A stretch of DNA of 23,963 nucleotides from Eledone cirrhosa (Eukaryota). The position numbers and the translations under genes are program-made. Shown piece after piece: positions 5,352-22,948 of the stretch (position 1 is the stretch's first letter; each line of letters starts with the position of its first letter). The stretch is from contig CAXHJY010000014.1 in assembly GCA_964016885.1 (NCBI GenBank), forward strand, positions 1 to 23,963. The letters are read 5' to 3'. The notes under the pieces were generated by a model. The model searched no databases. It worked only from the letters and a program-made list of their open reading frames with translations, and had not been told where the DNA came from.

Positions 5352-5397
5352 AAATCAACAGAGTACTCGATACTTAGGGTAGTAGAGTACGGTTATA
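5352..5397 (-). mobile_element. Isolated 3' tail fragment of the HHR element family
   Basis: Minus strand GTACTCTACTACCCTAAGTATCGAGTACTC is nearly identical to 21142-21168; (TA)n on both sides. Confidence 0.65.
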
Positions 5398-5742
5398 TTA
5401 TATATATATATAATATATATATATATATATTATATATTTATATATATATATATATGACTCTGTAGCATTGAATACTCTATGACAGAGGTCCTCAAAATAT
5501 ATAACAAAAAGAATGGAATAACAATGAAGTGAATATGTAGAGAAGGTACCGTGAACACGCTCTGCTGGCCAACTACACCACAAACTAGACGAGGTTTAGT
5601 GAGCTGATATCAAGCCAGACCACAACATTATATTTGGAAAGCCACCAATACTAATTATAATATGTTACAGACGTAGTCAAGTGAGAAATGATGTGTCGCT
5701 TTTGTTTCTTATATATATATATATATATATATATATATATAT

Positions 5743-5801
5743 AAAGTAAAAAACAAAAACAATAACAAAGAGTGCAGTACGAAGTGTTGGTATTATATTT
5801 G
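5743..5801 (-). mobile_element. Isolated tail fragment, GTACTGC family
   Basis: Minus strand TTCGTACTGCACTCTTTGTTATTGTTTTTG; island between (TA)n tracts. Confidence 0.45.
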
Positions 5802-6008
5802 TATATATATATATATATATGTGTGGATATATATATATATATATATATATATATATATATATATATATATATATATATATATATATATATATGTGGATAT
5901 ATATATATATATATATATATATATAAATATATATATATATATATATATATATATATATATATATATATATATATATATATATGGATATATATATATATAT
6001 ATATATTA
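5802..6008. repeat. (TA)n tract with recurrent GG interruptions
   Basis: Direct reading. Confidence 0.95.
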
Positions 6009-7304
6009 TAAGACGTTTTCAACCTCCCACCCCAAAAAACATGGTAGAAATTATTTATTTATTTGTTTTTGTTATGAAATGAGAGGAAAGAAAGGGAAAT
6101 CAATCTTGTTTATTGAGAGGGTTGGGGTTACGGCTGGAAGAATGTCTTTTATGACTTATAGCTGAGACTTTCTTTCTCTGCGTCTCTCTCTCTCTGTCCA
6201 CCTGTCTGTTTGTCTCTGTCTCTGTCTGTCTCTCTATCTGTCTGTCTACCTGTCTACCTGTCTCTCTCTCTCTTTCTCCCTCTCTCCCACTCTCCCTCTC
6301 TCTCCACTCTCCCTCTCCCTCTCCCTCTCCCTCTCTCTCTCTGTGTAGCGGATCCATAGACCCTGAAAATGTCTCACCACTTCACTTCCTTATAATTCCC
6401 TCCACACGGTAATAAAACGTGATGGGCAAGGCTGGATTACTTTTGAACGTACGTGAACTTTCTCGATGAAACCCCACCTGTATCTAAACAGACAACAACA
6501 ACAACAACTATAACAACGACAAGTAGAACTAGATTTATTTTAACATTATGTTAATGAATGATTTCTGAAAAGCCCGAGGAGGGGATACACCGTGTCCCCT
6601 CTCTGTTGAGTCAGTCGTTTTATTTCTATTGCTATTGTCTCTTCCTTCAAACTTTAATATATTTAAATGTCTCTATATAGGATTCTCTACCCCCATCGAC
6701 CTCTCTCCCTCCCACAAACACTCTCTCTCTTCCCCACCCCTCTCTTCTTTCTCTTACTCTTTATCTATCTATCTATCTATCTATCTGTTCTTTCTTTCTC
6801 TCTCTCCCACTTCGTCCTCTCTCTCTCTCATTCTCTACCCACTCTCTCTCTCTCTTTATCTTCTCTCACTCTCTCCCTCTGTGCTTCTCTTCCTCAAAAT
6901 TTCCCTTCCCCTCTCATTCCTACAACTTTCCTTCAGTTAAACCACCTCCTCCTCCGTCTCCTCTCAAACTCCATTAGAAATTTCTGTAAATTGAAAGAAA
7001 AGCAGACGATCTTTTCTCTTCGTAAAACTAAAACAAACATTCAAATAAAATATAATACTTCTTCCCCCTCGGGTTGTCTCTATGACTAAAAATGACTGAG
7101 TCAGAAGTTCCAGAGGCTTTTGTTTGGATTCGAACATTTCTCTGCTTCCTCTCTCTCTCTCTCTCTCTTCCTCTCTCTTCTCCCTCATTACTCCCCCCTC
7201 TCTCTCTCTCTGTTCCCCCCTCTCTCTCTCGGTTCATAAATAATAGATTGGAAAATGGAATAAAATATCCCTATAGACGAAAAAACAAAAATATGTGACT
7301 AGCA

Positions 7305-7370
7305 GCCGCTGCCAAGAATCGAACTTTGTACGTCTCAACTTCTGGCCGACTGTTCTGTACAACTCAGCTA
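7305..7370 (-). mobile_element. tRNA-like/SINE head remnant
   Basis: Minus strand TAGCTGAGTTG (A box)...GTTCGATTCTTGG (B box); no intact cloverleaf. Confidence 0.5.
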
Positions 7371-8164
7371 AATAATACATTTATATATACATACATACAT
7401 AATACATACATACATACGTGTGTACATACGTACATACATACATACATACGTATGTACGCACTATATATATATACATACATATAAACAAACAAGCAAACAA
7501 ACAAAAGTATGCCAGCAAACGCTAATATTATCTGAACATCTTATGTACACCAACGATAAGTTTACAAATACCGATTAGCGGATGTAGACGAAAGCGAAGC
7601 CTTGGCGTGTGGCAGTCGTCCATTTTGTCGATAATTGTGACGTCATTGTCGTAAGGCCTCGAGGTGGATATTGCCATCGGCGGACATCTTGAAATATCGT
7701 GTATTTGTGTAGGGAGCTATCATTGAGCGTCTCTGTGTGCCATGTGAGGTTCTGTGTGTATGTGTATTGTCTGTTTGTTTTTGTGTTTATGAGTCTATGT
7801 GTGTGTGTGTGTGTGTGTGTGTGTGAACTACATACACATCAGCACGTGAATACGTTTGCACAGTGAGGTCCACAATCGTTATATAGGCATGTTTGTATGT
7901 ATGTATATATGTGTGCGTGTATGTATGTATGTGTATTTGTATGTATGTATGTATGTATTTGTCTATGTATGTATATATGTGTGTATGTATGTATGGTACA
8001 TTCTTTATCAACACCCTCCACCCCCTCACGAGAGTATACTTGGCTCTCGCCAAAGAGTTCGTGGATCTCGCTATCACGTGAACAATCGACGGAACAAATA
8101 TTCAATATTAAAACGACAGACTTCAGCAAATCTTCCATCTTGGATCTTGGTTGATTGATATATA

Positions 8165-21528: not shown

Positions 21529-21752
21529 CGTTGCTTTCATCCTTCTATGTTGTTTACTTGTCCCACTCGCTTTACGCGATTTACTTGTCCCAATAGCTTT
21601 ATTTAGCTATTGCTCGCACCAACCTGAGGTATATGATTTTTAATGCGATGAAATTACCAATGAAGGTTGGAAAATCACTGACGAAGGACTATTTTTATCA
21701 TATGTAACCCATGTGCAACCACGCAGTATTCTTCTTTCTTCTCATGTTTTAT
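21529..21752. repeat. Arm A' of about 220-bp inverted repeat (partner 20359-20576)
   Basis: Reverse complement of arm A; bounded by (TA)n on both sides. Confidence 0.9.
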
Positions 21753-22012
21753 ATATATATATATATATATATATTAGAAAAGGGAAGTAAGGTTCTATAC
21801 AAAACAGTGGATATAGAGAAAAGGTGAAGTTGAAAATAACACGGAAAATATATTTAAGGGTCTGTTTCTCTTTTTTTATCCTTTCTTTGATTCGTCAAAG
21901 TGACATTATTGAAAAGATAAAAGATAACATTATTGAAAAAAAAAAAAATATATATATATATATATGGAAGCAACGAGAAAAAAGTATGTCTTGTTTCGGG
22001 ATCTAAACACAC

Positions 22013-22080
22013 CACCAGCAATCGAACACAGAACCTTAGCAGCGTGAGACGTACAACCTAACCACAATGCCACGTGTCTT
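22013..22080 (-). mobile_element. tRNA-like/SINE head remnant
   Basis: Minus strand TGGCATTGTGGTTAG (A box)...GTTCGATTGCTGG (B box). Confidence 0.55.
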
Positions 22081-22425
22081 GCCAAATTGTAAGTGTACGA
22101 AATGACACAAAGAACATTTTAGTTTCGATGATATACACAATATAAAGTGGGCCATAAATGTCAAAAACCTATCGAAATGGATGGAAAAATCCAAGTCAAA
22201 GGCTATTAAGATCTGACTCAGTAGAGCAACAATGAAAATTTTATGGCGTCTATCATTGGTGTAGAATTTATTTTATTGTTGTTGTTCAGAAAAGTTAGAG
22301 ACATTGAGAAATATTTTTACAATTTTTACATTACAACCGATTAACGAGTCGTTATTCTGTTCAGTTTATGGCCGCCATGTTTCATGGTCGTCGTTATTTA
22401 AAGAAACATCAGAGTTATGAGAAGA

Positions 22426-22469
22426 CAAGTCACGTGGATCGAAGAATCCAAGTCACGTGGATCGAAGAA
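22426..22469. repeat. 21-bp exact tandem duplication containing CACGTG
   Basis: CAAGTCACGTGGATCGAAGAA at 22426 and 22449. Confidence 0.9.
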
Positions 22470-22790
22470 GACAGAAGACAGAGAATAAGAGGGACTTTAT
22501 GTTGATGTCACAATGTCGAAATCCTTTTAGTCATTTACAACAGAGATCTGCAACAAGTGGGCCATTGAGTGGCGGAGGGTCTCCCTGGCGGCAGTTCGAA
22601 TATTTTATATTTAAAATTAGAAACTAAACTATATAATGCGAAGGCTATACTCTGATGGATTCTCTGTTTTGCCTATATATATATATATATATATATATAT
22701 ATATATATATATATATATATATATATATATATATGTATATATATATATATATATATATATACGCATATATAAATATATATATATATATTT

Positions 22791-22948
22791 ATTAAAATAA
22801 CATTAAGGTGTGAAAGCAGCGATTCTTTGCTTAAACTTTAATCTGTCATTTTAATAAATATTTGCTCTACGGTTCTTATATATTTGATATATATTTATCC
22901 TTATCGAGCCCTCTTTGGATTTTAGTCTTCAAATTTATTATTATTACT
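22791..22948 (+). mobile_element. Decayed HHR-type element between (TA)n tracts
   Basis: Stem I ATTAAAATAACA(22791-802)/TGTCATTTTAAT(22844-55) pairs 11/12. It encloses decayed core positions (TTAAGG...TAAAC...ATC). Followed by AATAAA and a GCTC...GAGCCCTC tail. Confidence 0.45.

Follow-up and report, generated by a model that had tools for sequence, protein, structure and literature searches.

A bulged hairpin beside the insertion ends of Hydra-clade Penelope-like elements as a probable docking site of their reverse transcriptase

The window analysed here is a stretch of 23,963 nucleotides (nt) from Eledone cirrhosa (assembly GCA_964016885.1, contig CAXHJY010000014.1, forward strand), which consists of microsatellite-rich animal DNA and contains no long non-repetitive open reading frame (ORF). 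Six copies of a small bulged hairpin lie in it, each in a short island bounded by (TA)n or (CA)n runs (Table 1). Five of the six inserts are flanked by (TA)n and the remaining one ends in (CA)n. The original prediction, made from the letters of the window, had placed a conserved 3' tail hairpin at these sites, downstream of ribozymes. All six sites were confirmed, and five hairpins lie 25–44 nt 3' of a type I hammerhead ribozyme, intact or remnant. A complete hammerhead core precedes only two copies (14427-14479 and 20825-20902) and remnants precede three, but the copy at 5363 follows none. Two islands contain perfect inversions (14359-14424/14429-14494 and 21023-21075/21080-21132), and a third contains an imperfect one. 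The window copies are single or inverted and never tandem; tandem relatives flank an ORF. We give a probability of roughly 65% to the reading that the inserts are ends of Penelope-like elements (PLEs) of the Hydra clade, and that the hairpin is the docking site of the telomerase-like reverse transcriptase (RT) of the element, fixing the start of complementary DNA (cDNA) 3–6 nt upstream.

The motif is more frequent in the window than chance would allow. A strict pattern, CTCT-N5-35-ATHGAGYMC, had five matches against 0.14 expected, a number reached in 0 of 100 shuffles; the sixth copy, at 15317, is decayed and falls outside this pattern. A looser pattern had six matches on 14,496 non-microsatellite bases, and the maximum across 500 shuffles was one. 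Both patterns were derived from the observed copies, so that their significance is overstated, and the independent test is the 5' arm in the metagenomic relatives described below. The bare decamer TATTGAGTAC, with one mismatch allowed, was not above chance (four in the window, 5.6 expected). An Rfam search of the window yielded nothing at the gathering threshold and, below it, only microRNA-type noise on repeats and palindromes; in 14300-23000 the hammerheads were not scored at E<=10. A scan of genome contigs for hairpins with an A-U outer pair yielded 21 chance matches, all prokaryotic and none near (TA)n, and the A-U form is therefore known only from the window.

The consensus of the hairpin is RCUC-Y..R-UH-GAGY-RC. 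What had been described as a plain hairpin is in fact a lower stem (RCUC/GAGY), a U-led bulge of 2 nt on the 3' strand and a variable upper stem, followed by RC-U. Single copies fold weakly (-1.7 to -6.8 kcal/mol), and the decayed copy at 15317 does not fold alone (0.0 kcal/mol). Covariation was assessed over 41 family-level hairpins (80% clusters, second hairpins and window copies) anchored at CTC and GAG. The first upper pair is paired in 40 of the 41 (U-A 27, C-G 13), and upper pairs 2–4 are paired in 33/38, 28/34 and 21/29 with four to five pair types (null means 20.2, 16.7 and 11.7). The upper stem covaries strongly, with a permutation P<=0.0001 for each pair, which bears out the apparent covariation of the original prediction. 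Only a bulge of 2 nt keeps all registers; with other bulge lengths the first upper pair forms in 1–23 of about 40 hairpins. When 39 of the hairpins were aligned by MAFFT without guidance, 93.8% of cells were paired against 79.8% after shuffling, with 50 two-sided changes against 16.3 (0/500 shuffles), and slid controls on this alignment had 21–56% of cells paired. The outer lower pair is G-C in 34 hairpins, A-U in 4, G-U in 2 and A-C in 1. The exchange of ACTC/GAGT for GCTC/GAGC, earlier singled out as compensatory, is seen, but it is the weakest part of the covariation and may be one inherited event, because A-U is contributed by window hairpins alone (4 copies, 3 families).

Intact relatives are arranged as ORF, 3' untranslated region (UTR), hammerhead, hairpin 1, 35–48 nt, hairpin 2, 13–43 nt and ATG, and the second hairpin is carried by tandem and full-length copies. 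Tail-less copies end 3–6 nt before hairpin 1 in 22 of 25 cases, the others ending 9, 11 and 12 nt before it. This set comprises 35 rows minus 10 (eight copies with a mutated hairpin, one broken inside the hairpin and one duplicate), three mis-anchored rows having been re-read by eye. Tailed ends lie 3–4 nt before hairpin 2 in 7/7 within-family comparisons, two of them in cis (L216 and L146). Here five within-family rows of 13 were kept, eight cross-family or AT-repeat rows were dropped and the two in-cis comparisons were added. The offset of 3–6 nt held in about nine families, in which the distance from hammerhead to hairpin runs from about 25 to 61 nt. Exactly one arm bears the hairpin in 26/26 inverted pairs; the selection guaranteed at least one hairpin arm in most pairs, none had two, and ten rows with a hairpin on neither arm were ORF-internal or other-family matches.

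Host reads agree with these positions. The 21080-21213 family is very abundant, with a depth of about 14,000 in two restriction site-associated DNA (RAD) runs. Its relatives enter (TA)n at 21136, 5 nt before the hairpin, in 3440 and 2996 reads and in 101 contigs, and a second class of reads enters (TA)n near 21213. Reads of relatives of the 20823 family agree in the hammerhead and hairpin islands but not in the spacer, and six contigs of a second organism hold pieces of both families. The junctions carry TA microhomology, and the spacers between hammerhead and hairpin are U/A-rich throughout. Since ends fall before each hairpin, a hairpin sits just 3' of an insertion end, and the hairpin-1 unit corresponds to the 'tail' known from PLEs. 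The distance from hairpin to terminal microsatellite, put at about 10–45 nt in the original prediction, is 43 (14500), 21 (15317), 47 (20934), 46 (21142), 36 (22864) and 10 nt (5363). The constraint does not lie in this distance but in the insertion ends 3–6 nt upstream of a hairpin; a genomic copy shows hairpin 1, and an uncopied hairpin 2 sets its downstream end. As a separate observation, full-length 5' ends also start at the foot of a hairpin (L216 1382-1484, and the starts of the available Hydra-1_Ajap and Hydra-1_Crog consensus sequences), and the same hairpin sites may define both ends of the unit-plus-tail product.

Relatives beyond the window link the hairpin to one clade. With nothing fixed but the hammerhead core and the 3' arm of the hairpin, a scan of metagenomes returned at least 116 loci, with about 650 estimated. 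Among the matches listed, the unselected CTCT 5' arm was present within 28 nt in 83 of 116 loci, against 0 of 49 viral chance matches obtained with a near-identical pattern. Pattern scans of viral contigs gave 37 and 49 chance matches in coding DNA, which served as controls; protein scans of viral contigs found no relative, and a covariance model matched nothing in the viral control loci (109 kb). The hammerhead filter applied to the metagenome loci still excludes 11 clearly related ones. Pieces of one ORF type occur in 31 of the 116 loci, and its C-terminus lies at most 450 nt from the hammerhead, on the same strand, in 24 of 74 real loci with at least 300 nt upstream (both counts among the matches listed). 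Four full ORFs of 705–707 amino acids show the hallmarks that PMC8557442 gives for Hydra in its section 11. The hairpin-bearing loci L094, L102, L104 and L146 have a single ORF with RT, RWK and DKT motifs in an element of <3 kb. A C-terminal CxCX5C linker and GIY-YIG-like strands are visible in hairpin-linked ORFs, no CCHH arrangement being expected of the clade, and both linker and strands are absent from the window. Pfam and NCBIfam gave no hit above cut-off for the ORF, and a PDB sequence search likewise gave no identification. The predicted fold of the ORF (predicted local distance difference test score 88.8) has telomerase RTs as its top two matches, and the related protein clusters number at least 3234.

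The hairpin has also been found in loci picked by protein alone, from host DNA inside metagenome-assembled genomes (MAGs), one of which is the assembly of a bivalve symbiont. In loci from four assemblies of this kind there are 29 distinct well-formed hammerheads, of which 19 are Hydra-type (10 hairpin-bearing, 8 ending before the hairpin and 1 rearranged); the hairpin is absent behind all 10 other-family hammerheads among them. The ratio of 10:8 is not a frequency, because part of the loci were retrieved with the hairpin model. The GTDB MAGs (L203-L218, G001-G004) contain animal host DNA with PLEs, many of them in one 12-Mb assembly. Read by eye, the same hairpin occurs in three of six novel Hydra-clade consensus sequences in the available supplement of PMC8557442, namely 43 nt after the cut in Hydra-2_Amil, 38 nt after the cut in Hydra-2_Ajap and as two copies before the ATG in Hydra-1_Ajap. 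Overall, Hydra-type PLEs of cnidarians (corals), a mollusc (clam) and an echinoderm (sea cucumber) carry it. The carriers, earlier taken for otherwise unrelated lineages, are most likely unalignable families of a single PLE clade.

The window inserts share with this clade a canonical hammerhead near the 3' end and insertion into (TA)n. In the literature, PLEs with an endonuclease are characterised by truncation, inversion, a hammerhead and a tail on one side (PMC8557442, PMC4209133), and the window shows 5' truncation, an inverted 5' copy and a tail on one end only. To judge from this architecture, the inserts are likely 5'-truncated ends of Hydra-clade PLEs. An identity as Naiad PLEs was rejected, as canonical hammerheads are present in the window and the linked ORFs have the C-terminal arrangement, against the N-terminal endonuclease of Naiad; non-LTR (long terminal repeat) retrozymes were rejected as the window copies are not tandem non-coding monomers. 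Naiad_Mmer has one match to the motif some 430 nt from the 3' end; this match is probably due to chance and was not counted. It adjoins what we take to be a selenocysteine insertion sequence (SECIS). Six further loci (L132, L152, L158, L187, L188 and L198) have another type of hammerhead, mostly with an ACAUGU stem III, a similar 3' arm, no exact 5' arm and no piece of a Hydra ORF; this arm could represent a divergent version of the motif in a different group of PLEs.

How PLEs choose internal start sites, and why a tail of 30–40 bp stands on one end only, are described as open in PMC8557442 and PMC11167929. In the literature covered, the Poseidon element PAc is the only PLE with in vitro work; its RT initiates internally at two sites bounding the tail, and PAc cuts and extends both target strands, hammerhead cleavage not being needed (PMC11167929). 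If the hairpins of Hydra-clade PLEs act as docking sites, the element protein would bind the hairpin RNA and its GIY-YIG domain would nick the (TA)n target. A short U/A-rich sequence immediately 5' of the hairpin would then pair with the nicked 3' end, which would be extended. With the RT held by each hairpin immediately 3' of the base that is copied first, the bound hairpin would itself escape copying. Two hairpins would provide two start sites, and what lies between these sites, the hairpin-1 unit, would be the tail; the target strands might be primed one at each hairpin. The cis-acting RNA element for RT recognition or priming that the original prediction had suggested is in this sense the most likely function, in view of the conservation, the covariation and the tight positional constraint.

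A later role of the hairpin would explain part of the same data, and we consider it unlikely. In this role it would signal a stop or an endonuclease cut, either on single-stranded DNA or on an RNA:cDNA hybrid, and a truncated cDNA would copy itself by fold-back, being halted or cut 3–6 nt before the hairpin to leave the tail-less arm. The perfect palindromes of the window, with centres of 4 nt, fit such fold-back synthesis, and the one-sided tails of the 26/26 pairs fit it equally. In PMC8557442 the tail has been attributed to endonuclease-mediated resolution, and the Penelope endonuclease required the tail for recognition in work cited in PMC11167929. However, tailed ends, where the first strand would start under this reading, keep 3–4 nt to hairpin 2 though hairpin 2 is absent from the product and never copied, which points to action on the RNA; tail-less ends also occur directly 3' of ORF ends, and the starts of PAc were mapped directly at both tail borders (PMC11167929).

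A role in RNA metabolism (translation, transcription, stability of the 5'-OH product or hammerhead folding), with the ends lying nearby merely through pairing of UA-rich sequence with (TA)n, is improbable. Hairpin 2 does lie only 13–43 nt before the ATG, the TA microhomology at the junctions would be accounted for, and the TAR and 7SK motifs function in transcription control (PMC6189040); yet the spacers are U/A-rich along their whole length and the ends still keep their offset as the distance from the hammerhead changes between families. Inherited or chance similarity without a conserved structure, to which the weak single-copy folds (z mostly above -2.5), the blindness of the permutation tests to phylogeny and the part of the motif imposed by the search patterns would lend themselves, is largely refuted by the unselected 5' arm and the empty viral control loci, by two-sided changes at five pairs while the hairpin flanks are unalignable, and by sibling-family reads that agree in the hammerhead and hairpin islands but not in the spacer.

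Several results weigh against docking of the RT on a covarying hairpin. Two of the five measures on the MAFFT alignment were not above shuffles (237/500 and 59/500), and RNAalifold predicts only the lower stem on it. Pairs 2–4 of the lower stem are invariant and imposed by the CTC and GAG anchors, and the shuffle and permutation statistics take no account of relatedness among hairpins. The comparison of strands (G-U 12 and A-C 5 over 48 distinct hairpins, P 0.07; 7 and 5 at family level) does not decide on which strand the hairpin acts, which leaves room for the late stop or cut. The inserts at 5363 and 15317 end 10 and 21 nt after their hairpins and are unexplained by a rule of two sites. Most metagenome loci belong to a few coral-type families, with 37 of 88 in one 80% cluster. 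In the available supplement of PMC8557442, a canonical copy is missing from Hydra-1_Amil (ending 48 nt after the cut) and Hydra-1_Obim, and the two variants in Hydra-1_Crog are divergent, with purine bulges that are at odds with the arginine sandwich discussed below. The window holds no ORF (none by hidden Markov model; best tblastn E 0.007–0.04, short pieces), so that its inserts are linked to the clade by architecture only and may be non-autonomous.

The invariant core of the hairpin resembles the arginine sandwich of HIV TAR and 7SK in secondary structure. A paired purine before the bulge and a U-led bulge occur in 41/41 hairpins, including 21/21 in which the search left both features free; G-C and A-U follow the bulge in 40/41, but are imposed by the anchors. 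Arginine sandwich motif 3 (ASM3) of 7SK comprises the pair A39-U68, the bulge U40U41 and the triple U40.A43-U66 (Pham et al. 2018, PMC6189040). TAR and ASM3 share with the Hydra hairpin the paired purine, the pyrimidine-led bulge and the G-C and A-U that follow, and ASM3 matches the commonest Hydra form. However, the Hydra hairpin is circularly permuted relative to both, the loop closing on the other side of the bulge, and its context is unrelated, which allows convergence at most. On the protein side, R at -6 and -4 before W[FY]NP is found in 99 and 98 of 117 homologues, and the predicted model places this RxR patch in a linker of low confidence that follows the RT helices; against it, stretches about as dense in Arg are present elsewhere in the protein. 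A reading of the bulge as an arginine-sandwich motif by the candidate RxR patch before W[FY]NPP is weakly suggested, as a lead.

A bolder form, that Hydra-clade PLEs evolved a TAR/7SK-type arginine-sandwich hairpin as RT loading site and carry two copies of it, and that two RT active sites, each clamped on one hairpin, prime both nicked (TA)n strands 3–6 nt upstream of their hairpin, is tentative and probably goes too far. If true, the design with twin loading sites would account for the PLE tail and for its presence on one end only, as well as for inverted insertions, and a portable handle of 25 nt would set the start of a telomerase-related RT. A covarying twin hairpin of 20–30 nt, with a fixed offset of 3–6 nt to both end classes in cnidarian, mollusc and echinoderm elements, makes the question of start sites testable by point mutants. 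As PLE RTs are sister to telomerase RT, the presence of such an anchor in the RNA, beside a target-pairing stretch, bears on the origin of template positioning. The hairpin also provides a clade marker for many ORF-less stubs in invertebrate genomes.

Table 1. Hairpins, hammerheads and inverted arms in the window
Feature	Position	Strand	Remarks
46-nt insert between (TA)n runs	5353..5398	-	one hairpin, 5363-5388; 25/26 nt identical to 21142 hairpin, flanks differ
Possible seventh, decayed hairpin	5457..5475	+	abuts a preceding (TA)n run; weak score (12.8 bits; E 0.37)
Inverted tail-less arm	14359..14424	-	perfect 66-nt copy of 14429-14494; stops 5 nt before hairpin position, enters (TA)n
Type I hammerhead	14427..14479	+	stem I 14427-14433/14473-14479; core CTGATGA 14434-14440; GAAA 14453-14456; stem III ACAG/CTGT
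Predicted cut of 14427-14479 hammerhead	after 14472	+	hammerhead layout as in Hydra-clade rows of File S2 of PMC8557442
Bulged hairpin 1	14500..14520	+	A-U outer pair, UU bulge; 27 nt past predicted cut; insert end ~14563
Hammerhead remnant	15244..15281	+	stems I and III retained; CUGANGA box and stem II collapsed
Decayed hairpin	15317..15333	+	upper stem lost; 16.4 bits; insert end ~15354 in (CA)n
Type I hammerhead	20825..20902	+	11-bp stem I; core CCGATGA (20837 is canonical T in more than half of relatives' reads); predicted cut after 20891
Bulged hairpin 1	20934..20956	+	G-C outer pair, UA bulge; 42 nt past predicted cut; insert end ~21003
Inverted tail-less arm	21023..21075	-	perfect 53-nt copy of 21080-21132; stops 9 nt (5 with one mismatch) before hairpin position
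Hammerhead 3' half	21085..21122	+	stem II 3' strand, GAAA 21094-21097, stem III; predicted cut after 21116; 5' half lost at inversion point
Bulged hairpin 1, very high-copy family	21142..21167	+	relatives end at 21136 (5 nt ahead) or ~21213
Old imperfect fold-back	22789..22857	+	left arm mirrors sequence stopping 6 nt before hairpin; uncertain hammerhead 3' half at centre
Bulged hairpin, AT-rich expanded loop	22864..22911	+	UC bulge; insert end ~22947

Among the other features of the window, the insert at 5353..5398 is possibly a hairpin-2 fragment of the 21142 family. The decayed hairpin at 5457 adjoins a weak tblastn similarity to a Hydra-type RT core (5522-5707, minus strand, E 0.04–0.55), which was unconfirmed by profile. 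The centres of the two perfect inversions, 21076-21079 (in stem II) and 14425-14428 (just before stem I), coincide with or adjoin hammerhead stems, a hint that ribozyme structure may trigger the fold-back. A further inverted insertion may be represented by a perfect inverted repeat of 65 nt (3693-3757/4104-4168), which lies in a (TA)n-flanked island where no hammerhead was seen. Around the hairpin elements, inverted arms are interleaved at (TA)n runs (20358-20495/21612-21753, 20743-20777/21967-22002 and 21488-21528/21759-21799), which suggests nested insertions of other TA-targeting elements. The window also contains a 5-kb array of mixed TAGTGG/TAGTGT hexamers (8168-13177) and a satellite of 72 nt (1972-2679) with 9.8 copies and 97% matches. 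Dispersed fragments that have short exact repeats in common (612-690, 1395-1435, 5065-5141, 17400-17415, 18069-18082 and 20603-20710) are similar to short interspersed elements (SINEs), presumably to those of cephalopods, and the AT-rich stretch 16740-17130 resembles what we take to be the decayed end of an ORF of a long interspersed element (LINE).

In stringent LINEs and SINEs and in R2, 3' stem-loops recruit the RT. The Hydra hairpin is comparable in that it is small and conserved, acts in cis as an RNA structure close to the insertion end and would be recognised by the RT of the element; in LINEs, SINEs and R2, however, the structure lies upstream of the start and is copied, whereas the Hydra hairpin lies 3' of the marked end and is uncopied. 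A conserved hairpin in Hydra elements is not described in the literature searched, in which subscription papers and Repbase reports were thinly covered. The words 'hairpin' and 'stem-loop' have no hits in the available main text of PMC8557442, bioRxiv 10.64898/2026.07.22.740005 and PMC13282606. The element type, the hammerhead and the tail are already known, and the twin hairpins and their link to two classes of ends were not found described in the texts available. The Hydra-clade PLEs of PMC8557442 (2021) are presented in its available parts without mention of twin hairpins, and the window copies differ from them in lacking an ORF. The hammerheads of PLE pseudo-LTRs and of non-LTR retrozymes (PMC4209133; bioRxiv 10.64898/2026.07.22.740005) are likewise of type I with a short, near-palindromic stem III and occur mostly as lone truncated ends; no downstream hairpin is described for these minimal hammerheads in the accessible parts of those papers, and the window copies are not tandem monomers. 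The motif was not seen in the available text on the Poseidon PAc stem-loop (PMC11167929). The closest parallel is PAc itself (Frangieh et al. 2024, PMC11167929), with two internal starts bounding the tail 3' of the hammerhead, an A/T-rich target and a start tied to a stem-loop; Hydra elements differ from it in having two repeated, covarying hairpins in the 5' UTR, with ends upstream of each.

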